DNA from: a virus
Strand: one strand, 5' to 3'
DNA length: 64,000 nucleotides
Virus record (IMG/VR): IMGVR_UViG_3300025121_000030
Coordinates: 1 to 64,000 of that record
Positions within the stretch are counted from its first letter, which is position 1. Every line of letters begins with the position of its first letter. The translations under genes and the position numbers were made by a program. The notes under the pieces were generated by a model. That model was not told the DNA's origin. It saw only the letters and a list, made by a program, of their open reading frames with translations, and searched no databases. Below, one piece after another: positions 34,491-58,462 of this stretch.

Positions 34491-34591
34491 GGGATAGATA
34501 AGGAAGTCATGAGCCTTATTGATAAGAGAATATCCGAGTTCTTTTCCCTTATTTAAAATTCTCGGAAAATAAAAATAATTGCTGTCGGAGG
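34491..34591 (+). ncRNA. structured 5' leader, copy A (three-way junction + pseudoknot)
   Basis: P1 ggga/tccc, P2 gataagg/ccttatt, P3 aagagaa/ttctttt; loop tccgag pairs with ctcgga at 34561. Confidence 0.65.
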
Positions 34592-34600
34592 TAATAATTA

Positions 34601-36259
34601 ATGTTGCTAACAAAAGAAGTAGAAATTGGCTTAAGTGGAAGACATATTAAATGGTATAAAAATAAAGGATATATAATACCAAGGGAAAAAGATAATCAAG
34701 GAAGGTTGTCAGTTCCACAGAATACAAAAATATTAGTTAAAGTAGAGGATTTATTAGATAGTTATAAGGTGCAAGTTGATATTGGATGTGATGAGTGTGG
34801 AGAATATTTAAAAACAATAGCATTGAATGATTATCGAAAATATATTAAAGACGATGAACAACATTATTGTATAAATTGTTTTAATTCATTATATATTAAT
34901 GGAATTAAAGCACAAGAAGTTAAGCAAATAATTAATAATAACTTAGGAGATACTTGGAAATTACTTAATGTTAAAATAATAAATACTCAAATTAATGTAG
35001 ATTTAATTAATTCGGATGGATATATGTATAGTAAAATTAAAATTTCCAGCATAAAAAAAGGTTATATACCACAAGGGTTTTATAAATCTAATATATACAT
35101 ATATCAAAATATTAATAATTGGTGTAAAATAAATAATTATAATATTAGATTGAGTGATGAGTACATTGGCTATGATGTAAAACTTAAATGGGAATGTTTA
35201 GACTGTAATCATATATTTGAAAGAAGTATGAATGCTATTACACGTGGGCAAGTGGGATGTTCTATTTGTGGAGATAATATTTCATACCCCAATAAGTTTG
35301 GACGTAATTTATTAAACCAATTAAATAATACATACAAATTAAAATATATAAAATTCGAATATTCACCGGATTGGATTAAACCTAAGAGATATGATAGTTA
35401 TTTTGAATTTAATAATAAAAAATATATAATTGAAATGGATAGAGCATTGGGACATGGTAATAAAAAAACATTAGATGGAACCACCCCTGAAGAATCTCAA
35501 GCTATAGATGATTATAAAGATAAAAAAGCAAAAGAACATAATATTAAGATGATTAGAATTGATTGTGTAAAATCAGATATGAAATATATTAGAGATAATA
35601 TTTTAGTTAGTGGATTAGCACAGATATTTGATTTATCTAATATTGATTGGTTAAAATGTCATGAGTTTGCTTGTAACAATTTAGTAAAAGAAACATCTAA
35701 ATTATGGAATGCTGGAATTAAAAATTCATCAGAAATTAGTGTTATTCTGAACTTAGGAAAGAGAACAGTTATAAGATATCTTAATGAATGTAGTAAATTG
35801 GGGTGGTGTGATTATGATGCCAATGAAATACAAAAAGCAAGTGGGGTAAGATTAGGAAAATCAGGGGCGAAACCAGTTGTTCAATTGTCGTTAAGTGGTG
35901 AATATGTTCAAGAATATAGTAGCATGGTTGAAGCTGAAAAACAAACAGGAATTATTATTATGAGTATTTCATCTTGTTGCAGAGGTAAATTAAAATCTGC
36001 TGGTGGATATCAATGGATGTTTCTTTCAGATTATAATAAAAGCGAAATAAAACAATATAAAAAATCTCCATATGTTAAAAAAGTTGTTCAACTATCACTA
36101 AATAAAGAATATATTTCGGAGTTTGATAGTATTATTGAAGCAGAAAGACAATTAAAAATAAATCATTCAAATATTTCTTCTTGTTGTCTTGGTAAATATA
36201 ATCATGCAGGTGGTTTTAAATGGATGTACAAATCAGATTATGAAAAATTAGTTGGATAG
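34601..36259 (+). CDS. putative free-standing homing endonuclease (Zn ribbons, Vsr-like, two NUMOD1)
   Basis: paralogous to 13539 (ISYPNK, RYD.YF, EMD..GH, RIDC); ISSCC.GK..SAGG.W x2. Confidence 0.8.
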   Translation: MLLTKEVEIGLSGRHIKWYKNKGYIIPREKDNQGRLSVPQNTKILVKVEDLLDSYKVQVDIGCDECGEYLKTIALNDYRKYIKDDEQHYCINCFNSLYINGIKAQEVKQIINNNLGDTWKLLNVKIINTQINVDLINSDGYMYSKIKISSIKKGYIPQGFYKSNIYIYQNINNWCKINNYNIRLSDEYIGYDVKLKWECLDCNHIFERSMNAITRGQVGCSICGDNISYPNKFGRNLLNQLNNTYKLKYIKFEYSPDWIKPKRYDSYFEFNNKKYIIEMDRALGHGNKKTLDGTTPEESQAIDDYKDKKAKEHNIKMIRIDCVKSDMKYIRDNILVSGLAQIFDLSNIDWLKCHEFACNNLVKETSKLWNAGIKNSSEISVILNLGKRTVIRYLNECSKLGWCDYDANEIQKASGVRLGKSGAKPVVQLSLSGEYVQEYSSMVEAEKQTGIIIMSISSCCRGKLKSAGGYQWMFLSDYNKSEIKQYKKSPYVKKVVQLSLNKEYISEFDSIIEAERQLKINHSNISSCCLGKYNHAGGFKWMYKSDYEKLVG

Positions 36260-36289
36260 AATAAAAATACAATAATATAAAAGTAAGTT

Positions 36290-36316
36290 AAAGACTATAT
36301 GTTTATAGTCTTTTTT
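36290..36316 (+). terminator. intrinsic terminator
   Basis: aaagactata/tatagtcttt plus T tract. Confidence 0.65.
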
Positions 36317-36355
36317 ATTTGTAATAAATAACAACAAAAAGTGAGTTGATAATAT

Positions 36356-36550
36356 ATGTACATAAAAAATGCAGAACAAATATTTTCTAAAGATGAACTT
36401 TATTATTGTTATGATATTAAAATTAAAAATTTCTTATGTAATGTAAAAAATATTCAATATATAAAAAAAAGTAAAGGAGAAGGTAAATTTTATTGGATAT
36501 TTTTGATGAGTGATGAATTAGAAATTTATTTAAAGGAATGGAATAGTTAG
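36356..36550 (+). CDS. small hypothetical protein (DUF5659-like)
   Basis: YYCYD..IKNFL...FYWIF..SDEL...L.EW. Confidence 0.55.
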   Translation: MYIKNAEQIFSKDELYYCYDIKIKNFLCNVKNIQYIKKSKGEGKFYWIFLMSDELEIYLKEWNS

Positions 36551-36647
36551 AAAAAATAATTTTAAAGAAGTTAAAACTAAATTAACTTCTTTTTTTATTG
36601 ATAATTTTAATTTCGATTTAACCAATTTAAAGGAGGTGAGTTAATTT

Positions 36648-38609
36648 GTGAGTGAAATAGTAAAATTTAATTGTGATAAATTTACTATAATAAGAGATGA
36701 TCCTAGATTTTTGGTTTGTAAATTTTTCTTTGGACTTATCGGTTCTAACTATAATGGTAGTGTAATCGAAAAGGAAGATTATGAAAATAATAAAAATTTT
36801 ATAGGATACACGCCGATTTGTGGTAAATTTAAAAATGGAGATTTTAAAGAACATGAAATTGATGAATATCCGTTAGGTAGTATATTAAGTTTAGAAGATT
36901 GTGAATATGGGTATGAAATATATGAAAATCTTGAGTATGCCACAGCATTAGGCGTGATCCAAAAAGAATACCTCACAAAGGAATCCGAGAATATTCTCAA
37001 AAGTGGCACAAAAAAAATAAGTATAGAAATTGAAGTTCTTAAAAAAGAAAAACTATCTAGTGGTAAGTTTAGGTTTAAGGAGTGGATTTATCAGTGTATA
37101 ACTATTCTAGGAGATAAACTAGAAATAGCAACTGGTATGAAAAACGCACATCTTGAAGTTTTAAATAAACCAAGAGAAGCATATGCAAGTTTTTGTAAAA
37201 GTACAATAGAAACTTTTGCAAAACAAGACACAGACAATAAATTTCAGTTAGGTGATTCCGTAATACCAACAGAATTACACATGCCAGAACACGAAGGTAA
37301 AACAGGAATAATTTCAGAAGTAAAAAATGGCTATTATTATGCAATTAAATTTATTGGCGATGAAGAACAGCATGAGTGGTATGCAGAAGATGAATTAAAA
37401 ATTTTTAAGAATGAAGAATTTTCAGTTGGAATTGAATTAGGTAAATCTAATTCAATTGAAATAAAAAATGATAAAGATAATTCTGTTGTTGGTGATTGGG
37501 AAGATCCTGGAGCGAAGATGTTAAATAGTCTACTTAAAGCAAGCAATCATGCTTCGCTTATAAAAGAAGCATATTTAATTATTGATGAAAATGTAGATAA
37601 TGATTTATCTGTTAATAATGTCCATTATCCACATCATATTATAAATGATGGTAATTTAGTGGTACATTATAGGGGAATTCAATCTGCATTAAGCAGAGCA
37701 AGAGCACAAGGTATAACTGGTAGTCCTATATCACATTTAAAAAAACATTATAAACAATTGGGTCTTAATATGGATAACTTTGAAAAATTTAATTTAACTA
37801 AAGAAGATTATAGTTATCTATTTGAAGATATAAATAATTTTAAAGAAAGTGAGGTAGATAAGGTGGTATTTAATAAGGAAGAGTTTGCAAAAAATTTTAA
37901 TGCAGTAGCAAATGAAATGTGGGGTAATATAGTCAATGCTAGTGAAATAAAAGCAGAAGATTTAAAGGCATTTGCAAAAGAAATTCTTACTGAAGAATTT
38001 AATAGTTTTGCTAAAATAAAAGTAGATGAAAAAAATGTGGAATTTATTCAAGAAAAAGAAACTTTACAATCTACTTTTGAATCTGAAAAAGAAACTATTA
38101 AAGCAGAATTTATTACTAAATCAGAAGAATTTACTACACAATTAGCGGAATTCACCACTCAATTAGAAGAAAAACAAAATTCTATTGTTTCTTTAGGTCA
38201 AGAACTAGATGGTTTAAAAGAACAATATTCTGCCAAAGAAACAGAAATTGAAACTTTTAAATCTGAAGTTGAGACTTATAAAACAGAGAATGAGATTCTT
38301 AAAACTGATATTGTTAATTTTGCTAAAGAAAAGAAAGAAACTCAAGCAGAAATTATTCTTTCTAAATTCGCAAAGAAAATTAATGAAGATGAAAGAAAAG
38401 ATTTATTTGGTAAACTTGAAAAATTTAATACTGTTGAAGAATTTGAGAAAGAAGTTAAAGCTTTTGTTTGTGATAAATATGAAGCTGAAACTAAAGGAAA
38501 GAAAGATTTTGCAAGTTATTCTCGTATGGGAATTGTTGTAACAAATGAAACTAAGCCTGAAGGTGAACATTGGACTGATTATGTAAAAGATTATCAAGAA
38601 AAAAATTAA
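36648..38609 (+). CDS. prohead protease/scaffold (YonD-like) with inserted domains
   Basis: NYNGS.I, TPICG, HE, ISIEI, ITILG protease-like N-terminus; acidic coiled-coil C-terminus; position before the capsid genes. Confidence 0.78.
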   Translation: MSEIVKFNCDKFTIIRDDPRFLVCKFFFGLIGSNYNGSVIEKEDYENNKNFIGYTPICGKFKNGDFKEHEIDEYPLGSILSLEDCEYGYEIYENLEYATALGVIQKEYLTKESENILKSGTKKISIEIEVLKKEKLSSGKFRFKEWIYQCITILGDKLEIATGMKNAHLEVLNKPREAYASFCKSTIETFAKQDTDNKFQLGDSVIPTELHMPEHEGKTGIISEVKNGYYYAIKFIGDEEQHEWYAEDELKIFKNEEFSVGIELGKSNSIEIKNDKDNSVVGDWEDPGAKMLNSLLKASNHASLIKEAYLIIDENVDNDLSVNNVHYPHHIINDGNLVVHYRGIQSALSRARAQGITGSPISHLKKHYKQLGLNMDNFEKFNLTKEDYSYLFEDINNFKESEVDKVVFNKEEFAKNFNAVANEMWGNIVNASEIKAEDLKAFAKEILTEEFNSFAKIKVDEKNVEFIQEKETLQSTFESEKETIKAEFITKSEEFTTQLAEFTTQLEEKQNSIVSLGQELDGLKEQYSAKETEIETFKSEVETYKTENEILKTDIVNFAKEKKETQAEIILSKFAKKINEDERKDLFGKLEKFNTVEEFEKEVKAFVCDKYEAETKGKKDFASYSRMGIVVTNETKPEGEHWTDYVKDYQEKN

Positions 38610-38635
38610 ATTAATATTTAAAGGAGGAATTTTTA

Positions 38636-39151
38636 GTGAGCAATATATGTGAATTTATGAATGAGGCAATTTTTGATGCTGATGTATTAAGTGTACAACA
38701 TGCTTCAACAGCACTCGATGATGGTTATGTAGGTGAATTAACTGGTTTAGTATCTGGAGAAAGAGATTTATATGCAATTGCTACTGCTACTGCTGTAACT
38801 ACTAATGAAGTAGTAATGGTTGTTGGTGCAGAAGTCCATATTGATGCATTTGGGTTTAGAACTCCGGTACATAATAAGGCAACTTTTACTTATATCGCAG
38901 GGATGCCAGTCCGTGCTTATAGAATGAGAGTTGGTATGAGATTTAAAATTAATACTTCTGCTATTAGTGGCACTCCTGTTGTTGGACAGTATGTAATTCC
39001 TGCTAATGGAACTTTTACACTTGCTTCTGCTGCTACTTTAGCTGGCGGAACAAGATTGGCATTTGTAGTTGAAGAAACTGGTTCTACTTGTAATATTTTT
39101 ACTGGAAAGACTGCTATTCCAGCTACAATTATTCGCGTAATTAAAGACTAA
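38636..39151 (+). CDS. capsid-associated/decoration protein (YonC position)
   Basis: small beta-rich protein between scaffold and MCP. Confidence 0.65.
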   Translation: MSNICEFMNEAIFDADVLSVQHASTALDDGYVGELTGLVSGERDLYAIATATAVTTNEVVMVVGAEVHIDAFGFRTPVHNKATFTYIAGMPVRAYRMRVGMRFKINTSAISGTPVVGQYVIPANGTFTLASAATLAGGTRLAFVVEETGSTCNIFTGKTAIPATIIRVIKD

Positions 39152-39186
39152 ATAAAAATATAAAAAGGAAAGGATGAAAAATAATA

Positions 39187-40296
39187 ATGAATATACTTAC
39201 TAAGTTTTCTAAGAAACAAATTGCTACGGTTGATTTAGGTGTAGAATTATACAAACATTATCTTTATGAAAGAGAAAATAATTTAGGACAATATAGTAGA
39301 TTTGCTACTTTTGCTAATACTACTGATAATAGTGGTCATGTAATTTCTTTTAAAGATAAAAATAATATTTTTAGTAATATGCTTGCTGATGAGGCTTATG
39401 AGATTTCTGGTTTGGATAAAGAACGTTTTGGAATTAGAGATGCTTTTGCTTTTCAAACTTTTGAAAGAGCATATTTTTCTGTAGTAGAAGCAGTTATTAA
39501 TAAAATTAACGCAAAAACAGAAATTGAATCAGCTTTAAATTTTGCAGAGGTAAAATCTATTGCGGATGGAGATAGTTTAACTTTCCACATTCCGTCAAAC
39601 CATTTATTGTCTGTATCTACTGTTGCTAATGGTGTGAGAAGTGTACATTTCCAAAACCTCTGGGAAGAAGATATTACTTTAAATCCTAAAAGAAAGAAAA
39701 TTGGCGTAAAGATTGATACATATCGTCTTGCAACAGGAATGTATGATTGGGGTTGGTTGTTGAATCAGGTAGTTAAATCTTTTAGAACTAAGTTGCAACA
39801 AGAAGTAATTAATATTATTTATGGTGCATATTCCACTCTTGCAACTAATTTTAAAGAAACTACTTATGCTCAAGATTCATATATTCGTTTAGCAGAAAGA
39901 GTTGCTGCTGCTAATGGTGGTATAACTGCAACTTCTGTAGGTACAAAAACTGCTCTAAATAAGATTTTACCTACTAATGACTATATGAAAATGCCTATAG
40001 GCAGAGAATATGTAGACGTTGGTTATATTCAAGCTCCATTCGGAATTCCTACTTTGAAATTAGAGCAATCCATTAACCCAAACAGTGCTTATGATTTTGC
40101 TTTAGATAATAATTATGTGATACTTATGTCTATTGCTACTGATAAATTGGTAAAAATTGGTACTGAGGGACGTTCTACTATAAGGGCATCAAAAGAATAC
40201 GAAACTAGTGACGGCACGAATTCTTATACTATTACAGATAGTTGGGATCTCAAGATTATTTCGATGGCATATTTTGGGATAGTAAAAGTGAGCTAG
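39187..40296 (+). CDS. major capsid protein (YonB-like)
   Basis: 369 aa, synteny; FAEVKSIADGD, GT..AL.KI, downstream terminator. Confidence 0.8.
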   Translation: MNILTKFSKKQIATVDLGVELYKHYLYERENNLGQYSRFATFANTTDNSGHVISFKDKNNIFSNMLADEAYEISGLDKERFGIRDAFAFQTFERAYFSVVEAVINKINAKTEIESALNFAEVKSIADGDSLTFHIPSNHLLSVSTVANGVRSVHFQNLWEEDITLNPKRKKIGVKIDTYRLATGMYDWGWLLNQVVKSFRTKLQQEVINIIYGAYSTLATNFKETTYAQDSYIRLAERVAAANGGITATSVGTKTALNKILPTNDYMKMPIGREYVDVGYIQAPFGIPTLKLEQSINPNSAYDFALDNNYVILMSIATDKLVKIGTEGRSTIRASKEYETSDGTNSYTITDSWDLKIISMAYFGIVKVS

Positions 40297-40365
40297 TAAT
40301 TTATAATTTTATTTTAGAATAATAATATAATTCTTTATAGGTATTGAAAATTTAATAAATATAAT

Positions 40366-40393
40366 AAAAGAGATATATTTATATATCTCTTTT
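40366..40393 (+). terminator. intrinsic terminator after the MCP gene
   Basis: aaaagagatata/tatatctctttt. Confidence 0.65.
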
Positions 40394-40472
40394 ATTTATT
40401 ATTTAAGAAAATAATATATATAATTAACTAATCATTAATAAATCAATATATCGGAGGCATTAAAAACAATTT

Positions 40473-41222: not shown

Positions 41223-41238
41223 GAAAGGAGAAATATAT

Positions 41239-41718: not shown

Positions 41719-41808
41719 TAATGTTTATGATTTAATTAATTATAAACATGATTATTATGATTATTGTAGTTTTGACATTATATAATAGTTAAGAAGGAGT
41801 GGATAGTT

Positions 41809-43044: not shown

Positions 43045-43053
43045 GGAGAATGT

Positions 43054-43212
43054 ATGAAAATATTTAATATTGAACAGGCAGACGTTTTTATTAAACATGG
43101 TGCAATTCCTATAAGTTGTGGTTTAGGAAATAAATGCAAAACTTATATTGAGTTTGAAGAAAATCAAATATTTAAAGAATTATTAAAAAAGTGGTTAAAT
43201 AGAGAAATTTAA
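43054..43212 (+). CDS. small hypothetical protein (52 aa; below the ORF-track cutoff)
   Basis: AAGGAG RBS; MKIFNIEQADVFIKHG...LLKKWLNREI. Confidence 0.6.
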   Translation: MKIFNIEQADVFIKHGAIPISCGLGNKCKTYIEFEENQIFKELLKKWLNREI

Positions 43213-43256
43213 TTACTTATTTTTATATTTCAAAGATTAAAGGAGGATTAATATTT

Positions 43257-44579
43257 ATGGGATTGATAAATGAAACAGTGTTAGTTAAGATGAATGGGGT
43301 AAATACAAAACATTATGAAAATTTAGGATATATAATTCCGAAGAAAAAACATTCTCAACGAAAAAATATTTTAGTATATGATACTACAAACCCCATATTG
43401 GTAAAAATTGAAGATTTATTAGATAATAGTCATGCTTTAGTAAATATTGAATGTGATGATTGTGGGAGAAAAATAGAAAATGTTATATGGCAAGCATATA
43501 AAAGATATGTTGGAGAAAATGGTGTATATTATTGTCAAAAATGTGCCAATAAATTATTTAGAAGACCAACATATAAAAAAACTAAATTAAAAAACAGCAA
43601 ATCTTTTGAGCAATGGTGTATTGAAAATAATAAACAGGATATTCTTTTACGTTGGGATTATGAATTAAATGATTGCAAGCACAGTGAAATTACATATGGG
43701 GTGGATAAAAAATATTATTTTAAATGCCCAATGGGAATACATAAAAGCGAATTAAAACAAATTAATTGTTTAACAAGTGGACAAGAAGGAAGTATGGATT
43801 GTAAACTATGTAATTCCTTTGCTCAATGGGGAATTGATAATTTAGGCGTTGATTTCTTCGAGAAGTATTGGGATTGTGAGAAAAATACAATTAATCCTTG
43901 GGATATAAGTAAATGTAATAATACAAGAAAAGTTTGGATAAGATGTCAAGAAAAAAAATATCATAATAATTATGATATAAGTTGTTATCGATTTATTATG
44001 GGTGACAGATGTTCTTATTGTAGTAAACGTGGAGGCAAGGTACATTCATTAGATAGCTTAGGTACATTATTTCCAAAATCTTTAGAATTATGGTCTGATA
44101 AAAATAAAAAATCGCCATATGAGTATGCACCTAAAAGTGATAAAGAAGTATATTGGAAATGTCCTAATGGAAAACATGATGATTATATTAGAGATATTTG
44201 TAATTCTAATAAATGTGATTTTAGATGCCCAGAGTGTGCATATTCCAAAGGTGAAGAAAGAATTAGTAATTATTTTATAAATAAAAATATAAACTATATT
44301 CCACAAAAAGAATTTGATGGTTTAGTTGGATTAAACAATGGTTTATTATCTTATGATTTTTATTTACCAGAATATGGTCTTATAGAATATCAAGGCGAAC
44401 AACATGAGAGATATATAAAAGGTTTCCATAAGTCAAAAAAGGATTTTGAAAAACAATTAGAGCATGATAGAAGAAAAAGACAATATTGTGTTGATAACAA
44501 TATAAAATTATTAGAAATTTGGTATTATGACTTTGACAACATCGAATCTATTCTTCAAAGAGAATTAAATTTACAATAA
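43257..44579 (+). CDS. putative homing endonuclease (Zn-ribbon repeats + Vsr-like domain)
   Basis: WDYELN/WKC..GH repeats; SKGEERI, LSYDFY, IEYQGEQH, HD.RK..YC..NNIKLLEIWY. Confidence 0.82.
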   Translation: MGLINETVLVKMNGVNTKHYENLGYIIPKKKHSQRKNILVYDTTNPILVKIEDLLDNSHALVNIECDDCGRKIENVIWQAYKRYVGENGVYYCQKCANKLFRRPTYKKTKLKNSKSFEQWCIENNKQDILLRWDYELNDCKHSEITYGVDKKYYFKCPMGIHKSELKQINCLTSGQEGSMDCKLCNSFAQWGIDNLGVDFFEKYWDCEKNTINPWDISKCNNTRKVWIRCQEKKYHNNYDISCYRFIMGDRCSYCSKRGGKVHSLDSLGTLFPKSLELWSDKNKKSPYEYAPKSDKEVYWKCPNGKHDDYIRDICNSNKCDFRCPECAYSKGEERISNYFINKNINYIPQKEFDGLVGLNNGLLSYDFYLPEYGLIEYQGEQHERYIKGFHKSKKDFEKQLEHDRRKRQYCVDNNIKLLEIWYYDFDNIESILQRELNLQ

Positions 44580-47169: not shown

Positions 47170-47207
47170 GCAATAGTTAAATTAAATACAGTATAAAAAC
47201 AATTAAT

Positions 47208-47312
47208 AAATAAACAGGGATAGTTAAGAGTTGTGATTTTAATGATAAGAGTGTATCGCAACCTCTCTTCTCTGTTTATTTGTTTTTTGTTGCGAAACAC
47301 TAGTTGTGAGGT
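47208..47312 (+). ncRNA. structured 5' leader, copy B
   Basis: P1 aaataaacaggga/tctctgtttattt, P2 gttaaga/ttttaat; loop tcgcaac pairs with gttgcga at 47289. Confidence 0.65.
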
Positions 47313-47334
47313 GATTATTAATGAGTAATTATTA

Positions 47335-48498
47335 ATGAGTAATTATGTAAAAAGAGATCAAAATGAATATGATAATAATTTTAAAAACATTATTGAAAAA
47401 TATACTGATCCAAAATATTTAACAACAAAAGGGTTTAGTAGTATGTCTGAAATTTCATCCCATAGTTATACTGTAGTTTTTAAGACTAATTGGTATGATT
47501 TATTAAAAAAATATGGTGAATTTGACAGGCTTTATCAATATGTTAAAAATGAATTTATTGAGTTTGCAAAATTAACAAAAATTACAAGTTTAGATAAATT
47601 TGTTCAACAGCATACTTGTTTGACTAAAGATTTTTTAAGGTATATAGATAATAAATTATTTAAAGATGAATGTAAAGTTTCTAAAAAATACACAAAAGAA
47701 ATGTTGGAAGATAATTTTTCAGATGTAAGGAATAAATTAGGAAGAGTTCCAAATCATTCTGAGTTTATTAAAATGAGTAAAATACATCCAAAAACATATA
47801 GGCAATTTTTTAATTTGTCTGGTCAAGTATGGGAAGATATTTTAAGGTATTTTGTTTCTGAAGAAGAAATTAATGAGTTTAATACATATCAAGCAGAATA
47901 CAGAAAACAAATTGCTATTGCAGCTTCACAAAAGGAATATATTTATTCTAATGAAGAATTAGAGAAAGAATTAAAAATAATTTTTGATTATTATTACAAA
48001 GAATTTAATGTATATCCTAGTAGAAGACTATTTAATAAGATATCTAAATTCCATGATTTACTATATCGTGAAAGATTTAATATGAAATGGTCAGAAGTAT
48101 GTAAAATGTATGGATATGAAATAGATACAAATAACAGCAAGTCAGAGAAAATATTTTTACAATTGGTTGATGAATTATTAAAAAGTAAGAATAAAACACA
48201 GAAAACCTTTGATTGGTTAAGAAATGAAGCAGGAAACAAATTAAAAATAGATGGATTCTATCAAGATTATAATCTTGCAATAGAGTTTGATGGTGTTCAT
48301 CATAGGAAGCCAGTGGCAAATTATGGTGGTATGGAGAGATACTTAAAGCAAGTTGCTAATGACAAAATAAAAGATGATTTAATTCCACAACATGGATTAA
48401 AATTAATTCGTATTGACAGTCGTGAATCTTGGCATGACAAAGATTATCTTAAACAAAGATTAATAGATGCTGGAATAGAGATTCCACAAATAGCATAA
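47335..48498 (+). CDS. putative homing endonuclease (helical repeats + Vsr-like nuclease)
   Basis: YTKEML...LGRVP...F repeats; SKSE, QKTFDWL, LKIDG, AIEFDGVHH, D.IKD. Confidence 0.8.
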   Translation: MSNYVKRDQNEYDNNFKNIIEKYTDPKYLTTKGFSSMSEISSHSYTVVFKTNWYDLLKKYGEFDRLYQYVKNEFIEFAKLTKITSLDKFVQQHTCLTKDFLRYIDNKLFKDECKVSKKYTKEMLEDNFSDVRNKLGRVPNHSEFIKMSKIHPKTYRQFFNLSGQVWEDILRYFVSEEEINEFNTYQAEYRKQIAIAASQKEYIYSNEELEKELKIIFDYYYKEFNVYPSRRLFNKISKFHDLLYRERFNMKWSEVCKMYGYEIDTNNSKSEKIFLQLVDELLKSKNKTQKTFDWLRNEAGNKLKIDGFYQDYNLAIEFDGVHHRKPVANYGGMERYLKQVANDKIKDDLIPQHGLKLIRIDSRESWHDKDYLKQRLIDAGIEIPQIA

Positions 48499-48519
48499 TT
48501 AAAAAAAAGAGGTGACAAT

Positions 48520-48738: not shown

Positions 48739-48750
48739 TAATAATAAAAC

Positions 48751-48820: not shown

Positions 48821-48963
48821 GCTGTTTTAATATTAAAAAATTAACCAAATAATACTAAAAGCTAAAGTAAAAATAAAAATTATTAGTTAAATACTGAGAT
48901 AATTTAGGAGAAAATAATTTTCTCCTTTTTATAATATTAAAAATTGAAAGGAATGATTATAAA

Positions 48964-49413: not shown

Positions 49414-49440
49414 ACTAGCTTAGAAAGGTAGGTAGCTCAT

Positions 49441-50868: not shown

Positions 50869-50892
50869 TTTAGAGATATTAATTTTAAGGCG

Positions 50893-53800
50893 GTGATGGC
50901 AGATATGAAATTAGATAAAGGCAGACTATATTCACGTCTGCCAAACAATACTTATACTTCTTCATTATTAAGGGGGACTATATATACTTTTATTTGGCAT
51001 AAAATTGAAGTGACTTTTTTTACACAAACAAATAAAAAAGTTACAAAAACGATATCGGTATTAAGGCAAACATTTAGAAGGATTTTTGATATTTTTAAAG
51101 GAAAGACTATTAGAAGACTTACTCAAGAAATATCAAATACAAATCAAACCAATAGAATTAACGATATCTTGTCAGACACTTCAATACAAACTCATAAGAA
51201 CAATGTTGGTTTTGTCACATTTTTTGGTAGTAATTATAGAAAAATAATACAATTAATTTTACATACATATCAAACTGTAAAGTCAAATAATAAATTGGTT
51301 GATTTTATAAGTCAAACATACCGTAAAATTCCATATATATTTAAAGGAAAAACGATAAGAAAATTAACGCAACAGATATTTATTACTAGACAAACTAATA
51401 AAATTAATAATAAATTACTTACTATGTTTATGCAAACTAAAAGGAATAATAATATTTTATATAATATTGTAAAAAATACAAGTAGGAAAATTATTTCTTT
51501 ATCATCTAAAATAAGTCAAAATATAAGAATAGTTACAAAAATATTACATAAATATTTTCAAACAAATCGTAGAGTAAACTATATTAATATTTTTATTGGT
51601 AATGGTTATAGAAAGTTAATTAATTTAGTTTTAAGGCATAATCAAACTATAAAAATTAACAATAAACTAATTGATATATTGCAACAAACATATCGTAAAA
51701 TACCTGATATATTTTTTGGAGATACATTTAGAAAATTAACACAAATAGATTCATCTTTGTTTCAAACTAATAAAAATATAAATAAAACGTCTGTAGTTTT
51801 ATCTCAATCTAAACGCAATATTATAGGGCTGATTAGTAATAAGATACAAAATAATAGAAGTATTGTTAAATTGAATTATATTGGTAGTCAAATAAAAAGG
51901 AATATTATAGAATTAAGTGAATCAACAAAGCAGACATATAGAAGAATTAACAACATATTTGTATTTAGCATACAAACAAATAGAAAAATTAATAGTTTGG
52001 TTATTTTTTATGTTCAATCAAACAAAAAAATAAATAAATTAATTAGTTCATTTCATCAATCTGTAAGATATAATATGATCATAGTTTATTGTATTAATCA
52101 AATTAAAAGAGATATAAATAAATTATATTTTATTAATAAGCAGATAAAAAGGAATATTTTAGAGTTTATTGTTAATATTGTTCATACTAAGAGAAATATT
52201 AATAAGATTATCATTATTATGAATCAGTTGAATAGGAATATTGAATTATTTAAAGTATTGTTAAAACAAACTTATAGAATGATAACATTATTATATTTAA
52301 ATAAATATCAAACTATAAAAACCAATAATAAATTAATTAATATATTGAGGCAAACATACAGGAAGATTCCAGATGTGTTTTCAGGAGACACAATAAGAAG
52401 ATTAACAAAACCAAGTTCAGTTTTATTGCAAACAAGTAAAAATATTGAAAAGATTTTTATAATTTCATCTCAGACTAAGCGAAATATTGTAAAATTACTT
52501 AGTAATAAAACACAACACAATAGAGGAATTATTAACAAAATAAGTATTAGCAAACAAACTAAACGTAATATTACTAAATTGATAAGTACGAGCATGGTTA
52601 GTGTATATGGGCAATTAATTCGTAAGGTTAATGAATTGGTTGATTACTTTAGTCATGGTAAGCGTAATATTTTGAATATCGTATGTGTTTATTGGCAGAC
52701 AAAAAGAAATAATGGTGTATTGAGTTATTATACTATCCAAAGCAAGAGAAATATTTATAAATTAGCAAGTTATGTCAGTCAAGTTTGTAGAATTATTTCA
52801 AAAGATATTAATATCATCAATCAATTAAACAGGCATATTAATAAATTAGAAGATTTTATTGGTAATAATTTAAGAAAAATCAATAAAGCATCTTATAATA
52901 TTGGACAAATGAATAGACAAATTATTTCATTTATATCTAATAACATCCAATTAAATAGAAATATAAATAAGATAATCAATATTAGTAAGCAAGTGTTTAG
53001 AAATATTGTTGAATTAATTGTAGTTATTAAGCAAACTAATATGAAAAACGTTATATTTATAGCATTAAATAAACAAACAAGTAGAATATTGAATAAAATT
53101 TCTATTGTTAATAAACAAATTATTAGAAATATTTATGATTTAACATTAATCAGTAAACAAACTAATAGAAAAACTACTTTGTTTACTGATTTAAATAAGC
53201 AAATTAATAGGATAGTTAATAAATTAGTAAGTAGTAAGAATCAAACTAAACGAGATATAAATAAGATTTATGATTATATTGTTCAAGTGAATAGAAATAT
53301 TACAAAATTCTTATCTGAAATTTATATACAACTTGAGAGATTTCTTTTAATTAAAGTTGAATCTATAAAGCAAACTAAGCGAAGTATTACTAGATTAATA
53401 AGTAATTATGAAATTACAAAGGTGCTTATTCAGATTGTTAGAAAAGTTGAACCATTAGTTTCATATATTGGACAGAGTAAGCTAAATATTATTAAAATGA
53501 TTAGTGATATTAGACAACAGAATAGATTAATAAATAAACTAGAAAGTTTTGTTTATCAAAGCAAAAGAGCAAGAATTTTGTTAACTGAAACAAAGAAGCA
53601 GAGTTTAAGAAATATTTTATTATTGGTATATTCTATTAATCAAAGTTGGAGAAACGTTTTAAAAATTACAGTAAAGTTATATCAGAAGAAGCGCAATATT
53701 ATTAAACTAGTTAAATACAACTTACAAAGTAATAGAGATATTATTAAACTAAAGTTTAAAGTATGGCAAACAAACAGAGATATTATTAAATTGTTTGGGC

Positions 53801-54747
53801 GTGTAAAACAAAGCATTAGAGATATTATAAAAATATCTTCTATTAAAGGACAACAAAAAAGAAATGTAATTAGATTTGAGGAGTATTTAAAACAGATCGA
53901 AAGGAATGTAATAAAATTAACTGTTTTTATAAAACAGAATTATCGTAAAATATTCAAATTAGAATTTATTACAAAAGGAAGCAAACGAGACATAATTAAG
54001 TTGGTTAAATATAATGGTCAGTCAAATAGAGATGTTAGGAAAATTGTGTCAGATTATTATACTCAAATCAAACGTAATATTATTGAATTGATAAGTTTTA
54101 AAAATCAGACTAATAGAAAAATTAATAAGATTTCGAGTTACATTACACAAACCAAGAGAAATATAAACGAATTTATTATTTCTACAATTCAAACAAATAG
54201 AGATATTATAAAAATTTTATTAATTTCTGTTCATTTTAAAAGAAATATTTTAAAAATTATTTATATTAGTAAGCAAATAAAGAGGAATATTATTGTATTA
54301 ATTAGTGCTGATGCGATTGTTGAAGCATTTATTCAATTGATTAGGAAAATTAATAAGATAGTATTTAATGTAGTACAAAGTAAACGAAATATTATTAAAT
54401 TATATGATATTAATAAACAAACGAAAACTAATATAAATAAACTACAAAGTTTTATTAAACAACAAAGAAGAAATATTGTTTTATTGGTAATAAGAGAATA
54501 TCAAACTAATAGAAATATTTTATTATTGGTAGAGATTTTAAAACAAAGCAAGAGAAATATATTAAAACTAATTTCACCAATTCGTCAATTAATCAGAAAG
54601 CTTATAACTATATGGGATGTATTTGATTTTGATTTGTTTGATGTGGTAGAGTTGGAGTTAGATTTTTATGTTGAAGAATTAAAGTTGGATTTATGTATGT
54701 ATGAAATTCCTCTTGATATTGAAGTTGAGGAGGTTAAAAGGTTATGA
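50893..54747 (+). CDS. 1284-aa basic protein of ~14-aa tandem repeats with an acidic C-terminal tip
   Basis: Q-[TS]-x-R-[NK]-I repeated about every 14 aa over ~1200 aa. Confidence 0.8.
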   Translation: MMADMKLDKGRLYSRLPNNTYTSSLLRGTIYTFIWHKIEVTFFTQTNKKVTKTISVLRQTFRRIFDIFKGKTIRRLTQEISNTNQTNRINDILSDTSIQTHKNNVGFVTFFGSNYRKIIQLILHTYQTVKSNNKLVDFISQTYRKIPYIFKGKTIRKLTQQIFITRQTNKINNKLLTMFMQTKRNNNILYNIVKNTSRKIISLSSKISQNIRIVTKILHKYFQTNRRVNYINIFIGNGYRKLINLVLRHNQTIKINNKLIDILQQTYRKIPDIFFGDTFRKLTQIDSSLFQTNKNINKTSVVLSQSKRNIIGLISNKIQNNRSIVKLNYIGSQIKRNIIELSESTKQTYRRINNIFVFSIQTNRKINSLVIFYVQSNKKINKLISSFHQSVRYNMIIVYCINQIKRDINKLYFINKQIKRNILEFIVNIVHTKRNINKIIIIMNQLNRNIELFKVLLKQTYRMITLLYLNKYQTIKTNNKLINILRQTYRKIPDVFSGDTIRRLTKPSSVLLQTSKNIEKIFIISSQTKRNIVKLLSNKTQHNRGIINKISISKQTKRNITKLISTSMVSVYGQLIRKVNELVDYFSHGKRNILNIVCVYWQTKRNNGVLSYYTIQSKRNIYKLASYVSQVCRIISKDINIINQLNRHINKLEDFIGNNLRKINKASYNIGQMNRQIISFISNNIQLNRNINKIINISKQVFRNIVELIVVIKQTNMKNVIFIALNKQTSRILNKISIVNKQIIRNIYDLTLISKQTNRKTTLFTDLNKQINRIVNKLVSSKNQTKRDINKIYDYIVQVNRNITKFLSEIYIQLERFLLIKVESIKQTKRSITRLISNYEITKVLIQIVRKVEPLVSYIGQSKLNIIKMISDIRQQNRLINKLESFVYQSKRARILLTETKKQSLRNILLLVYSINQSWRNVLKITVKLYQKKRNIIKLVKYNLQSNRDIIKLKFKVWQTNRDIIKLFGRVKQSIRDIIKISSIKGQQKRNVIRFEEYLKQIERNVIKLTVFIKQNYRKIFKLEFITKGSKRDIIKLVKYNGQSNRDVRKIVSDYYTQIKRNIIELISFKNQTNRKINKISSYITQTKRNINEFIISTIQTNRDIIKILLISVHFKRNILKIIYISKQIKRNIIVLISADAIVEAFIQLIRKINKIVFNVVQSKRNIIKLYDINKQTKTNINKLQSFIKQQRRNIVLLVIREYQTNRNILLLVEILKQSKRNILKLISPIRQLIRKLITIWDVFDFDLFDVVELELDFYVEELKLDLCMYEIPLDIEVEEVKRL

Positions 54748-55034
54748 TAGAGTTATATAAGGGAGAGAAGCGTTTATGTGGAATGTCTGTCAAAAGTAGA
54801 AGTGGTAAAAGTTTTTTAATAGAGAGTGTTTCATGCAAGGTGGTTGACAATGTAGGAACTACTATTCAAGAAGATGAAGAAGGAACAGTTGAAGATCATT
54901 CAGTTTTTTGCTTGGTTGATACTACATTGGATGGGTATGTTTATAGTAAAGGATATATATTGCAATTTAGTATCGTTCTGAAAGATGTGCCTAAAATAAT
55001 TATGGGGAAGTTAAGTATTAAAATAAAGAAATAG
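54744..55034 (+). CDS. small beta-sandwich-like protein
   Basis: GAGGAGG RBS; overlaps the upstream stop. Confidence 0.65.
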   Translation: MIELYKGEKRLCGMSVKSRSGKSFLIESVSCKVVDNVGTTIQEDEEGTVEDHSVFCLVDTTLDGYVYSKGYILQFSIVLKDVPKIIMGKLSIKIKK

Positions 55035-55061
55035 TTTAATTATGAGAGGAGTGATATAAAT

Positions 55062-56174
55062 TTGGCTTCAATTAAAATATATAAAAATCCAACAGGAGAT
55101 ATTGATGGCGATTTAGTCAGTACGGAAGACTGGACATCGCCAGTAGATTCTGGATTTCTCCTTATCCCAGAAACAGGATCAGAAAGCGTAATTGGAGAAT
55201 GGAAAAAATGTGCTTTAAGGTGTAATGAAGGTCTCCAGACGATAAATGACCTAAACAGAAATTGCAGACTGACGTTAGAAGGATTAAAATCCACATGCTG
55301 GCAACTTGCGAGTGATATCAATGGTTTTCCAAATTCTACCCCTTCTGATTGGGGTCAACCATTAGATATAGTGTCTGATAAAATTTATGATAAAAATTAC
55401 ATTTTTTGGGTAAGAGCCTGTACTGATGTGGGTGATATCGTAGAGAACGACAAAACTACTAAACTTGTGGCTCAAGCTCTTGTAGGATTACCGTGGACTT
55501 TAGACATAGATGATATGATTTCCGAACCTGATGTAAATGTAGTTTTTTCAAACATAGTAACAATTCCAGAAGACTGTATTATATATGCGTTAAATGTAGA
55601 TGCTACCAATCCGGCTTATATTCTTAAATACATTATAAATGGTGAAGAGTTAACAATAGGTCATATGGGAGATCCTACTTTCGAATGGATTCATCAAGCA
55701 TTAAGTGTTTCTAAAGATTCAACTTTTCAAATATATTTAGGTGGAGTTTTTGGGAATGAAATAGGTGGGGATTTAAAACTATTTTTAAATAATGAGAATG
55801 GAAAAGAACTATCTTATTTTCATTGGTATGTTTATGCTTGTTATCTTACTACAGCATGTGTTAAATATAAAGGATTAGAGGATGATTGTTCTGAGTTGAC
55901 TGCAATGAGGTTATTAAGAGAGCATTATATTAATGATCCTGAATATAGAGAATTAATTAGAGAATATTATCAATTGGCTTCTCAAATTGTTAAAGCTATA
56001 GACCAAGAAGATGATCCTAGTTTGGTTTATGAACAAATTTATCAGAGTGTTAAGATTTGTGAAAATGCAGTTAATAGTGGAGATTGGCAAACTGCTAGAG
56101 ATGAATATTTGAGTATGTATTATGAGTTGGCAGAGACTTATATAGAGGATTATATTAGGTTGATGGTTTTGTAG
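55062..56174 (+). CDS. domain A + domain B + CFI-box-CTERM-like protein
   Basis: IYKNPT..DG.LVS, ALRC, WQLA.D, IFWVRA; CYLTTACV..GL.DDC.EL..MR.LR. Confidence 0.75.
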   Translation: MASIKIYKNPTGDIDGDLVSTEDWTSPVDSGFLLIPETGSESVIGEWKKCALRCNEGLQTINDLNRNCRLTLEGLKSTCWQLASDINGFPNSTPSDWGQPLDIVSDKIYDKNYIFWVRACTDVGDIVENDKTTKLVAQALVGLPWTLDIDDMISEPDVNVVFSNIVTIPEDCIIYALNVDATNPAYILKYIINGEELTIGHMGDPTFEWIHQALSVSKDSTFQIYLGGVFGNEIGGDLKLFLNNENGKELSYFHWYVYACYLTTACVKYKGLEDDCSELTAMRLLREHYINDPEYRELIREYYQLASQIVKAIDQEDDPSLVYEQIYQSVKICENAVNSGDWQTARDEYLSMYYELAETYIEDYIRLMVL

Positions 56175-56203
56175 TAAGTTTAATTAAATATAAAGTTTAT
56201 TTT

Positions 56204-56311
56204 TAGAAGGGTAAGTTCGGGAGTTATAAACCTGAATGAATCGCAAAACTCCGATTGCGATACCCCTTCTATTTTTATTTGTCTATTTATCGGAGAAAAT
56301 TAAGACGGAGG
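56204..56311 (+). ncRNA. structured 5' leader, copy C
   Basis: P1 tagaaggg/cccttcta, P2 gttcggg/cctgaat, P3 atcgcaa/ttgcgat; loop ctccga pairs with tcggag at 56290. Confidence 0.7.
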
Positions 56312-56319
56312 TTGATTAA

Positions 56320-57510
56320 GTGAGTGATGAATTAAAGGGTAAAAGTGGTATTTATAAGATTGTAAATTTGGTTAATGGAAAGTTATATGTTGGGAGTACA
56401 GTTAATTTATATAATAGAAAATCTCAGCATTTTAGTAGTCTTATGACAAATTGTCATAAAAATCCGTATTTACAAAATGCATTTAATAAATATGGAATTA
56501 ATACTTTTAAATTTGAAGTATTAGAATATGTAGAAGATGTTGATAAGTTAATAGAACGAGAACAATATTATTTAGATATTTATTTTGATAATAAAAATAA
56601 GTGTTATAATGTTTTACCAACGGCAGGTTCCCCATTGGGTGTAAAACATTCTGATGAAACGAAATTAAAGTTAGCAATTACTGGAGGAGCAAAACCTTTT
56701 TATGTTTTTAAAGACAGAGAGTTTATAGGAGAATGGATAAATTCATCAGAATGCAGTAGAAATTTAGATATAAATTATTCTGGTTATATTCGTAAGTGTT
56801 TAAAAGGTAAACAAAATATGTTTAATGGTTATATTTTTATTTATAAGGATGAATATAACGAAGATAAATTAAAAGAAATTTATGAAATGGTTGAGTCAAA
56901 ACCGTTTTTAGTTTTTGAAAAATATACAGAAAATTTTATTGGAGAATATGACACAATAAATAAATGCATGATAGATTTAAATATAAATATAAAAAGCGAT
57001 GGTGATATTAGGAAATATTTAAAAGATAAAACTTATTCTGTGAATAATTATATTTTTATATATAAACATGAATATGCAGAAGATAAAGTAAAAGAATTAT
57101 GTAATATAAACTTAAATGCCAAGCCATTTTATGTTTATAAAAAAGATGATAAAAAATTTGTTGGTAAGTTTAGTTTGCAACAAGAATGCGCAAAAGAATT
57201 AAATATAGACGCATCTAATATTAGTGGTTGTTTAAGAAAAAAACATTATTTTGCAAAAGGATATGTTTTTATTTATGAAGAAGATTATTCTGAAGAAAAA
57301 TTAAATGAATTATGTAATAAAACTCAAAGTTTAAAATTTTTGAAATATGAATTTGAGGTACATGAAAAAAATACAAACAAATTTATAGGTATTTATGATA
57401 GCCAAGTAGATTGCGCTAATGAATTAGGATTAAACCATAAAAGTATTAGTAATTGCCTTTGTGGAAAACAAATATCAACTGGTGGTTATATTTTTGAAAA
57501 AGTTTCTTAA
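56320..57510 (+). CDS. GIY-YIG homing endonuclease with NUMOD3/NUMOD1-like repeats
   Basis: SGIYKIVNLVNGKLYVGS, REQYYLD, YN..PTAGS.LG.KHS.ETK; four KPF.V...GYIF repeats. Confidence 0.9.
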   Translation: MSDELKGKSGIYKIVNLVNGKLYVGSTVNLYNRKSQHFSSLMTNCHKNPYLQNAFNKYGINTFKFEVLEYVEDVDKLIEREQYYLDIYFDNKNKCYNVLPTAGSPLGVKHSDETKLKLAITGGAKPFYVFKDREFIGEWINSSECSRNLDINYSGYIRKCLKGKQNMFNGYIFIYKDEYNEDKLKEIYEMVESKPFLVFEKYTENFIGEYDTINKCMIDLNINIKSDGDIRKYLKDKTYSVNNYIFIYKHEYAEDKVKELCNINLNAKPFYVYKKDDKKFVGKFSLQQECAKELNIDASNISGCLRKKHYFAKGYVFIYEEDYSEEKLNELCNKTQSLKFLKYEFEVHEKNTNKFIGIYDSQVDCANELGLNHKSISNCLCGKQISTGGYIFEKVS

Positions 57511-57549
57511 TTAAGATATAAAAATAAATTTGAGAGGAGTGAAATAAAT

Positions 57550-58311
57550 TTGGCTTATCATATAGCAATTTATCGTGACAATCCTACCGTAAACTTAACT
57601 GATGGAACAATAGTTTCAGAGAATGATTTTTCTAACCCGGTTGATTCAAATCACATATCTATTCCAGCAACAGGGAGTACAAATGGTAACTGGGTGAAAC
57701 TTGCTGTACGTTGCGATGAAGGAACAGAAACTATTTTTGACTTAAATCGTCACGCTAGGATCAGTTTAGATGGTTCTGGCAATACAAATTGGCAACTAGC
57801 TGAAGATAATAGTGGTTCTCCATCAAGTACACCACTAGATTGGGGATTACCTTTAGACATAACAGAAATTATAACTGATACTAACTATATATTCTGGACT
57901 CGTGCAAAAGCAAATTCCACTGAAAGCGTTTCTAATGACACTTCAATTGAAATAATTGCACAGGCTTTAGTAGGTAATCAGCCTTGGACTTGGAACATAT
58001 CTGACATGAGTGTAGTAGAAGGGATAGGAGAAGCAACTGAGTCTATTATAATACCAGAAGATTGTACTTTATATTATACTGTAACAGGGGATATGCCAAC
58101 TTTTGCAGTTTATACTGTTGGTGGAGATGCATTAAATGGTTGGATAATATGGATTTCTAATTACGATGTTAGAACATTTAGTTTTATTAAAGATCAAGTG
58201 GTTGCTGTATCAATATTATATTCTAATTCTGGAACTACTGGTACTCATATAATAAGAGAAAACGATGAGAATGGAAGAATAATTGCACAGTTTAATGTAA
58301 CATGTACATAA
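57550..58311 (+). CDS. domain A + domain B protein
   Basis: paralog of 55062 lacking the C-terminal domain. Confidence 0.75.
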   Translation: MAYHIAIYRDNPTVNLTDGTIVSENDFSNPVDSNHISIPATGSTNGNWVKLAVRCDEGTETIFDLNRHARISLDGSGNTNWQLAEDNSGSPSSTPLDWGLPLDITEIITDTNYIFWTRAKANSTESVSNDTSIEIIAQALVGNQPWTWNISDMSVVEGIGEATESIIIPEDCTLYYTVTGDMPTFAVYTVGGDALNGWIIWISNYDVRTFSFIKDQVVAVSILYSNSGTTGTHIIRENDENGRIIAQFNVTCT

Positions 58312-58345
58312 AAAATATTGAAAACAGAATATAAAAGTTTATTTT

Positions 58346-58462
58346 TAGAAGGGTAAGTTTGAGATTAGCTGTCTTAGACGATGCACAAAACTCCAATTGT
58401 GTCCCTTCTATTTTTATTTGTGTAAAAATATGTGAGTTTTGGAGAAATCAAATTTATGGAGG
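58346..58462 (+). ncRNA. structured 5' leader, copy D
   Basis: P1 tagaaggg/cccttcta, P2 gtttgaga/tcttagac, P3 gcacaa/ttgtgt; loop ctccaa pairs with ttggag at 58439. Confidence 0.7.

Follow-up and report, generated by a model that had tools for sequence, protein, structure and literature searches.

A recurrent three-way-junction RNA leader upstream of unrelated phage endonuclease genes and its predicted loop pairings

RNA structures that sequester the ribosome-binding site (RBS) have been described for the T-even and Aeh1 homing-endonuclease genes I-TevI, I-TevII, I-TevIII, segB and mobE (PMC3014915). The int-alpA RNA motif (RF02996) is an orphan candidate RNA published by Weinberg et al. in 2017 (PMC5737381), which Rfam types as 'sRNA' with unknown function. 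We analyzed an RNA leader that shares features with both and occurs four times in front of endonuclease genes in the first 64 kb (hereafter the window) of IMG/VR record IMGVR_UViG_3300025121_000030. This record, from an uncultured virus, has 98,268 base pairs (bp) and 26.6% G+C, and public DNA runs with this phage come from groundwater, soil and sediment metagenomes.

The leader consists of a conserved three-way junction followed by two sites that are both complementary to one of its loops, the second of which lies at the RBS. Our preferred reading, to which we give a probability of roughly 55%, is that it controls translation in cis through two mutually exclusive pseudoknots.

The leaders and their RNA family

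A preliminary description of this DNA had reported four leaders that share one fold in spite of differing stem sequences. All four were recovered at their positions with a single layout: helix P1 ending in GGG, a linker of 3 nucleotides (nt), the P2 hairpin, a GAU or GA linker, the P3 hairpin and CCC closing P1. The linker between P1 and P2 is AUA in copies A and B and UAA in copies C and D. In the window copies, two sites are complementary to one part of the P3 loop, the first lying 12-33 nt 3′ of the core (the proximal site, or decoy) and the second, a near-copy of the first, overlapping the Shine-Dalgarno (SD) sequence (the distal site). The duplex energies listed below are those of each site with the P3-loop segment.

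34456-34484, plus strand: promoter of copy A, TTGACA-17-TATAAT, 12 of 12 matches
34491-34548, plus strand: three-way junction of copy A; P1 GGG/CCC, linker AUA, P2 at 34497-34520 with loop AAGUCAUGAG, linker GAU, P3 at 34524-34545
34533-34538, plus strand: P3-loop segment of copy A, UCCGAG (TCCGAG)
34561-34566, plus strand: proximal site (decoy) of copy A, CTCGGA; duplex -8.0 kcal/mol
34584-34591, plus strand: distal site of copy A, GTCGGAGG, overlapping the SD sequence GGAGG; duplex -5.4 kcal/mol; ATG at 34601
47205-47284, plus strand: three-way junction of copy B; extended P1 of 15 bp (47205-47219 / 47270-47284), P2 at 47223-47243
47256-47262, plus strand: P3-loop segment of copy B, UCGCAAC (TCGCAAC)
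47289-47295, plus strand: proximal site of copy B, GTTGCGA; duplex -8.8 kcal/mol
47303-47311, plus strand: distal site of copy B, GTTGTGAGG, overlapping the SD sequence; duplex -6.9 kcal/mol
56204-56271, plus strand: three-way junction of copy C; P1 of 8 bp (56204-56211 / 56264-56271), linker UAA, P2 at 56215-56237 with loop AGUUAUAAA, linker GA, P3 at 56240-56261
56249-56255, plus strand: P3-loop segment of copy C, CUCCGAU (CTCCGAT)
56289-56295, plus strand: proximal site of copy C, ATCGGAG; duplex -9.1 kcal/mol
56305-56311, plus strand: distal site of copy C, ACGGAGG (SD); duplex -6.1 kcal/mol; GTG start at 56320
58346-58410, plus strand: three-way junction of copy D; P1 of 8 bp (58346-58353 / 58403-58410), linker UAA, P2 at 58357-58379, linker GAU, P3 at 58383-58402
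58391-58396, plus strand: P3-loop segment of copy D, CUCCAA (CTCCAA)
58439-58444, plus strand: proximal site of copy D, TTGGAG
58456-58462, plus strand: distal site of copy D, ATGGAGG (SD); ATG at 58476

The perfect promoter that had been noticed before copy A was confirmed, and the predicted RNA start lies about 6 nt past it, at the GGG of 34491. Copies B, C and D show only a -10-like TATAAA, 7-9 nt before a longer P1 (8-15 bp); the promoter scan in this AT-rich DNA was at chance level. For copy C, the minimum-energy fold gives the junction. Copy D is a paralogue of copy C with the 5′ 30 nt and the loop in common, but its P2 is a 9-bp stem with the pentaloop UAGCU, a class that recurs in loci L308, L060 and L396. 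A leader peptide of 15 codons starting from the AUG in the P2 loop of copy A was also considered and rejected, as this open reading frame (ORF) is not kept in relatives.

Three scans of IMG/VR served to gather homologues, each with a pattern that fixed a different part: the linkers and the P3 foot, the P2 hairpin GGAAGTCATGAGCC, or P3 and P1. Each scan returned dozens of contigs with a common layout in which the unfixed parts differ in sequence. A loose hairpin descriptor gave many false positives in AT-rich DNA, and covariance models were used instead. Model R1, made of four equal-length sequences from other contigs, matches window copies A (E = 1.8e-9), B (E = 3.2e-10) and C (E = 0.011), while model R3, made of 46 sequences with none from the window, matches copy A with 57.2 bits (E = 1e-13) and copy B with 25 bits (E = 1e-4).

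Among 42 distinct sequences, 95.7% of the paired cells are canonical, compared to 66.2% after shuffling and 33-54% when the partners are slid; the model-fitted alignment inflates such figures somewhat, but the slid controls carry the same bias and still fail. The covariation by which the shared fold was to be checked takes the form of double-sided changes in 12 of 15 pairs, with 174 compensatory cells. When the strands were compared, canonical pairs amounted to 96.8% in the sense and 90.1% in the antisense reading, and 105 G-U pairs stood against 22 A-C pairs, the fold therefore belonging to the sense strand. Judged by this covariation, the leader fold is a real RNA family and not a product of chance.

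At the second base pair of P3, most members have A-U and a few have G.U, while 11 of the 42 distinct sequences have A.C, found in GC-rich members (e.g., L157, L150, L146 and L182). The two wobbles, A.C and G.U, are isosteric, a hint of protonation (an A+.C pair) or of a tertiary contact made by the P3 foot.

Two cultured phages carry a member, Bacillus phage vB_BanS-Thrax2 (ON548418, at about 18.48-18.58 kb) and Sporosarcina phage Lietuvens (MT104122, at about 3.19-3.29 kb). In both, a gene annotated as HNH endonuclease follows directly, and the Lietuvens copy is flanked by the terminase and portal genes. A blastn match suggests Bacillus phage KoopaTroopa as a third candidate. Scanning one genome per prokaryotic species gave about 27 true copies, all with an identical P2 hairpin, in hosts that include Prevotella, Lysinibacillus, Mesobacillus, Fictibacillus, Clostridia, Acetobacterium and Burkholderiaceae as well as Desulfobacterota, Planctomycetota, Spirochaetota and Elusimicrobiales, among others. 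Over these roughly eight host phyla, neither the junction nucleotides nor the 14-nt P2 hairpin GGAAGUCAUGAGCC changes, while the helices vary freely. Six Pseudomonas and about 16 other matches of the same scan fell in conserved coding DNA or had no junction, and were set aside as chance. A match in Staphylococcus phage DELF3 (GGAAGTAATGAGCC) is not a member either: it lies among group I intron pieces and has neither the junction nor the palindrome. In vB_SauH_DELF3 (LC576631; L391:1501-1524) the look-alike hairpin GGAAGUAAUGAGCC stands between Rfam Intron_gpI matches at 1465-1497 and 1834-2222, and its resemblance to the P2 hairpin may be due to chance. A leader of the type preceding DUF1376 genes had no blastn match in named phages or Escherichia coli genomes.

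We assigned 60 downstream genes to Pfam families. DUF1376 was the most frequent (11/60), followed by HNH_3 (7/60), NUMOD4 (6/60, mostly the same genes as HNH_3) and the treble-clef domain DUF4379 (5/60). GIY-YIG, HNH, HNH_2 and Phage integrase were each found in 3/60, LAGLIDADG and HNH_repeat each in 2/60. The association with endonucleases put forward earlier thus stands insofar as a variety of nucleases is found downstream, but the DUF1376 replication genes and integrases in this list show that it is not exclusive. The link of the leader with nucleases of unrelated folds is real.

One loop, two sites and the control of translation

We examined the two sites in 64 distinct members, taking as a control each loop paired with the downstream DNA of other members (200 permutations). 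The best helix between loop and downstream DNA had a mean of 6.9 compared to 4.8 in mismatched combinations (permutation maximum 5.2). Two non-overlapping sites for one loop segment, of at least 6 and at least 5 bp, were present in 70% of members against 10% of mismatched combinations (maximum 22%), so that the reported covariation of the P3 loop with both the decoy and the RBS site holds across the family. Sets in which the loop and both sites change together include GTCAAC with GTTGAC twice, ACTGAG with CTCAGT twice, CCTCAC with GTGAGG twice, and CCAACTCA with TGAGTTGG and GAGTTGG.

The positions of the sites are also constrained. Median distances are 13 nt from the core to the beginning of the proximal site and 9 nt between the two sites. 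From the end of the distal site to the start codon the median is 5 nt, with 48 of 55 cases lying within 12 nt, and this position is the same in Bacteroidota-type phages, although the site is not SD-like there. Since the distal site is pinned to the start codon even without SD character, what is conserved would be the masking of the ribosome landing region and not the SD motif.

Two further features concern the P2 loop and the sequence behind P1. The P2 loop has 9-10 nt and is made of purines, a six-base word and one more base, usually a purine. The word is Watson-Crick self-complementary in the forms UCAUGA (by far the commonest), UAAUUA, UUAUAA, UUGCAA, UAGCUA, UGAUCA and UCGCGA; with UUGUGA of copy B, which is self-complementary through wobble pairs, there are eight different hexamers, all self-complementary. 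The exceptions are the long-stem pentaloop class already mentioned, one GAAA loop and one AAAAGCGCAC loop. The central two bases of the word are adjacent and cannot pair within one loop, and their covariation therefore points to a predicted loop-loop pairing of two RNAs. Directly behind P1 comes a U-rich tract, with a mean of 4.5 U in 8 nt compared to 2.3 in the background; at least 5 U in 8 nt occur in 55% of members (5% in the background), and the U share of the linker is 53% (29% in the background).

Promoter motifs would place the fold at the RNA 5′ end. The Bacteroidota-type motif TAnnTTTG ends 4-5 nt before P1. For TATAAT-like boxes, the distance to the core is 6-8 nt in the Firmicute type and 11-12 nt in the proteobacterial type.

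According to the reading that we prefer, the leader would be the 5′ end of the nuclease mRNA and act in cis on its translation. The compact three-way junction would start at or within a few bases of the transcript 5′ end. When the P3 loop pairs with the proximal site, about 13 nt behind P1, the RBS would be left free; pairing with the near-copy, whose end lies some 5 nt ahead of the start codon, would mask it instead. The two pseudoknots would exclude each other, and if they form in the cell, their balance would set the amount of nuclease, replication initiator or integrase produced. The masking state would need a push, for which RNA-RNA dimerization through the P2 loop, a universal host factor or a small ligand are candidates. 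Leader and gene would travel together as one cassette.

Several points weigh against this reading. Of the two helices, that with the decoy is the more stable one in 42 of 56 members, against 3 ties and 11 members in which it is the weaker; mean duplex energies are -8.2 kcal/mol for the proximal and -6.4 kcal/mol for the distal site. As the decoy helix is both stronger and nearer, at equilibrium the RBS would be mostly open and rarely masked, and we regard it as probably open by default. A plain brake in cis does not need a decoy and would be weakened by one. The switch limiting toxic translation that had been suggested is consequently upheld as to the complementarity of loop, decoy and RBS, but with such a decoy it would require a trigger or a second RNA. 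Control in cis explains neither the self-complementary P2 loop nor the U-rich tract behind P1, and about 30% of the 64 members have no two clear sites. The same phage has a nuclease-like gene (43257-44579) with an ordinary RBS, AAAGGAGG, and no three-way-junction leader. Finally, the alignments were fitted to the model, and the sequence sets were gathered with patterns that fix part of the motif.

The U tract and the eight palindromic P2 words would also suit a leader-derived small RNA acting in trans, an explanation that we consider rather unlikely. The junction and the U tract would end some transcripts before the proximal site and release an RNA of 60-75 nt with a free P3 loop. This RNA would dock on the full-length mRNA through the P2 loops, the mRNA's own loop holding the proximal site and the incoming loop masking the RBS site. 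Output would then fall as the transcript dose rises, as in a self-titrating riboregulator, and each cassette would have a private loop/site 'address' against cross-talk. The proximal site always begins just past the U tract, two sites suit two loops, and Rfam types int-alpA as an sRNA gene. However, P1 has only 3-4 bp in 30 of the 64 members and a branched structure makes a poor intrinsic terminator. A terminator scan, which detects simple hairpins only, found nothing at the window leaders, all-A/U kissing hexamers such as UAAUUA would be weak, and members whose P2 ends in a pentaloop or a GNRA loop have no palindrome. An unlikely explanation, too, is a riboswitch-like sensor, in which the junction and the proximal pseudoknot would form an aptamer; a ligand or host component would lock the loop proximally and leave the RBS open, and the unbound loop would turn to the RBS site. 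Its usual layout is indeed a three-way junction with a pseudoknot and a competing RBS copy, and here a conserved core precedes decoy and RBS sites that appear to compete for one loop. Junction nucleotides and a P2 hairpin that are invariant over about eight phyla would imply either a partner common to all hosts or a self-contained tertiary fold. Against a sensor, no metabolic theme unites the nucleases, DUF1376 replication initiators and integrases, some members have a pentaloop or a GAAA hairpin in place of P2, and the palindromic covariation of its loop suggests RNA-RNA pairing over a ligand pocket.

It is improbable that the leader is a structural 5′ cap or insulator without a switch. Its knot would shield the mRNA 5′ end from 5′-end-dependent RNases, much as exonuclease-resistant three-way junctions do whose loop forms a pseudoknot with downstream sequence, or would end the upstream transcript. 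The fold begins at the 5′ end, the proximal pseudoknot is predicted to be the stronger one, and in copies B, C and D, where other genes precede the leader, P1 with the U tract is terminator-like. The RBS copy would then be a by-product of cassette evolution, but the distal site covaries with the loop as the proximal site does, and its pinning to the start codon even without SD character is not expected of a by-product. A self-cleaving ribozyme or an RNase processing site that frees the nuclease mRNA from a late polycistronic transcript is very improbable. In its favor, the junction is small, strongly conserved and combined with a predicted pseudoknot, it occurs in phages near genes where known small ribozymes are frequent, and copies B, C and D lie inside an operon; however, most members start at their own promoter and have nothing upstream to remove. 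The small ribozyme offered as an alternative in the preliminary description also failed to find a family in Rfam. The window leaders do not fit the small ribozyme models (hammerhead, twister, twister-sister, pistol, hatchet, hairpin and HDV-like), and the sole match, to the hairpin ribozyme on the minus strand of copy B, reached 16.8 bits against a gathering threshold of 65. This match and those to PK-HAV, mir-43_2 and snoRNA models were at chance level, and readings as a k-turn, a hammerhead core or an anticodon-loop mimic were dropped because the defining nucleotides are not kept over the variants. Least probable of all is an element acting as DNA or from the antisense strand, be it a cruciform, an antisense RNA or a site for homing or recombination. 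That the leader travels with its gene and that the P2 hexamers are DNA palindromes would fit, but these palindromes vary and so are not the site of one protein, the loop-RBS complementarity would be meaningless in DNA, the promoter lies upstream on the sense strand, and the excess of G-U over A-C pairs favors a sense RNA.

Downstream genes and signs of a mobile cassette

The genes behind the four leaders and a block related to copy C are as follows.

34601-36259, plus strand: gene A, 552 amino acids (aa); NUMOD1 and I-HmuI-like NUMOD plus treble-clef domains; matches PHROG homing-endonuclease families
47335-48498, plus strand: gene B, 387 aa; weak HNH_repeat match; matches PHROG homing-endonuclease families
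56320-57510, plus strand: gene C, 396 aa; GIY-YIG and NUMOD homing endonuclease
58476-59609, plus strand: gene D, 377 aa; GIY-YIG and helix-turn-helix (HTH) homing endonuclease
56166-57530, plus strand: block missing in contigs of a related phage population (run X12); leader C and gene C together

The leaders had been described as preceding unrelated nuclease families within a late module, which agrees with what we found: a portal gene lies just upstream of copy A, and the other three copies have virion proteins around them, which places all four in the structural (late) module; B, C and D sit within an operon there. As for the families themselves, the two GIY-YIG genes (C and D) were confirmed, but the 'Vsr-like' assignment of genes A and B was not. 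The latter match PHROG families annotated 'HNH endonuclease' and 'homing endonuclease', and a sequence search of their proteins against PDB gave no match. Proteins C and D are 36% identical, an identity confined to the catalytic domain, and leaders C and D resemble each other more than their proteins do.

The leaderless gene at 43257-44579 is a fifth homing-endonuclease-like gene, belonging to phrog_559 / phrog_9084, the families of genes A and B; an ORF of 52 aa (43054-43212) precedes it. In front of gene B, a 14-nt tandem duplication at 47320-47347 (AATGAGTAATTAT plus T or G) makes a mini-ORF of 4 codons (ATG at 47321, MSNY, stop TAA at 47333-47335) at a proper SD distance. As its stop overlaps the gene B ATG at 47335 in the form TAATG, gene B may depend on termination-reinitiation.

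In the contigs of run X12, position 56165 or 56170 is joined to 57531 with 9 or 4 other letters between them, at a depth of 5-8. One break point coincides with the end of the upstream gene, and the other lies 19 nt short of the following one. This low-depth allele of metagenomic contigs is modest evidence, consistent with the missing block marking the limits of a mobile cassette of which leader C would be a part. The genes that flank cassette C (55062-56174 and 57550-58311) are paralogues, both of phrog_23562, and cassette D lies behind the second one; each GIY-YIG cassette thus stands directly behind a copy of this gene. By megablast, the C-D region had no match in named phages.

Two leaders from other contigs (L318:1217-1268 and L009:3952-4004) have the identical P3 loop ACCGAAG and two identical CTTCGG sites in front of unrelated genes, an ORF starting MSNKGFIKMYRDIW behind L318 and a NUMOD4-HNH nuclease behind L009. 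The leader with both sites would therefore be swapped as a module whose joint is at the start codon.

Comparison with described RNAs

The preliminary description could assign the leaders to no named family. We came to a different conclusion, that they are probably distant relatives of int-alpA, although the window copies themselves fail the Rfam model. In the Rfam search, the four leaders gave no match to RF02996 at its gathering threshold of 35.8 bits or at E<=10 (25 kb, and 594 nt around the leaders). Five long-P2 leaders (L182, L146, L167, L135 and L168), which have the same P2 hairpin as copy A, scored 28.1-34.9 bits, all below gathering, while bona fide copies elsewhere in L182 and L200 scored 39 and 40.3 bits. 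Conversely, R3 found two bona fide int-alpA copies with 14.9 bits (E ~0.08), ranked right behind the four long-P2 leaders that it recovered. These reciprocal matches form a consistent pattern, although each of them stays below threshold. In the bona fide copy at L182:8769-8835 (39 bits), the loop reads CUCAUCAC, the proximal site GUGAUGA and the distal site, at the SD sequence of an HNH endonuclease, UGAUGAGG.

Beyond the window, RF02996 gave a sub-threshold 32.4 bits at 78807-78875 of this phage's genome. We read this as a fifth superfamily copy in the phage (L396:1501-1569), of the short type, with the pentaloop P2 GGG-UCGCU-CCC and the linker GAAAAG. Its loop AUCCUUA matches UAAGGA and AAAGGAG (SD) before a long ORF, the first 200 aa of which had no Pfam match.

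The int-alpA RNA is composed of P1, a (C/A)UA linker, P2, GA(A/U)AAG, P3, P1′ and a U-rich tail with a stretch complementary to the P3 loop. The window copies have the same order of P1, UA-type linker, P2, GA-rich linker, P3, P1′ and U-rich tail. They differ by a long P2, capped either by a 9-10-nt loop that includes a self-complementary hexamer or, on a long stem, by a pentaloop, by the linkers AUA/UAA and GAU/GA, by being very AT-rich and by hosts that are not Proteobacteria. The Rfam model marks neither a pseudoknot nor an RBS site. By name, the context of int-alpA is integrase or alpA genes of proteobacterial prophages, whereas the window copies precede homing endonucleases in a phage of low GC content and, in the wider family, only 3 of 60 downstream genes are integrases. 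We read the window leaders as divergent, AT-rich branches (long-P2 and pentaloop) of one int-alpA superfamily, of which Rfam would cover the short-P2, GC-richer branch.

In the literature we found no published function of int-alpA, whose name does not occur in the main text of PMC5737381, and no description of the leader element. Nor could we find an account of two sites for one loop, of the pinning of one of them to the start codon, of the palindromic P2 word, of the U tract or of so wide a range of hosts and gene families.

If control in cis is the right reading, it would provide this orphan motif with a function and with a mechanism open to testing. Taken as one superfamily, it is much larger than its catalogued part, extending over phages and prophages of Bacillota, Bacteroidota, Pseudomonadota, Desulfobacterota, Planctomycetota, Spirochaetota, Elusimicrobiota and others, and since the Rfam model misses the AT-rich long-P2 branch, such leaders are at present unmarked in annotation. 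Selfish nuclease genes, phage replication initiators and integrases would share a portable, self-set expression that moves as a cassette. The design appears 'programmable', one loop and two matching sites being free to take any sequence, and could serve as an orthogonal part for translational control. Dimerization of the RNA through the P2 loop, if it truly takes place, would be rare for bacterial and phage messages. Were the trans explanation true instead, the leader would be an RNA-only dosage sensor over many bacterial phyla.

Other RNAs recall parts of the leaders' design. The hok mRNA, with its tac, ucb, dcb and fbi segments, and the MS2 maturation-gene leader form mutually exclusive pairings, triggered by 3′ processing or by folding time. 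As predicted here, one segment pairs with either of two partners and thereby decides whether the RBS is open; there is no similarity in sequence or fold to our leaders. The dimerization initiation site (DIS, SL1) of HIV-1 is a hairpin loop of 9-10 nt composed of purines, a six-nt self-complementary word and a purine, in which the word varies and stays self-complementary. The P2 loop of the leaders has the same make-up, with a word that is likewise self-complementary. It differs in that several words are all-A/U, some members have no such loop, the RNA is an mRNA leader rather than a genome-packaging signal and the dimer is a prediction.

The T-even and Aeh1 hairpins are alike in that an RNA structure at the translation start of a phage homing-endonuclease gene lowers translation (PMC3014915). 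In the window, the distal site overlaps the SD sequence in 4 of 4 copies, as a potential for pairing. The T-even and Aeh1 structures are local hairpins without conserved sequence, and they are relieved by a late promoter inside the hairpin that gives a shorter transcript. In the leaders, the promoter motifs precede the entire fold, with 4-12 nt between them and P1, and a conserved junction at the very 5′ end is combined with a competing decoy and a predicted long-range pseudoknot that would mask the RBS.

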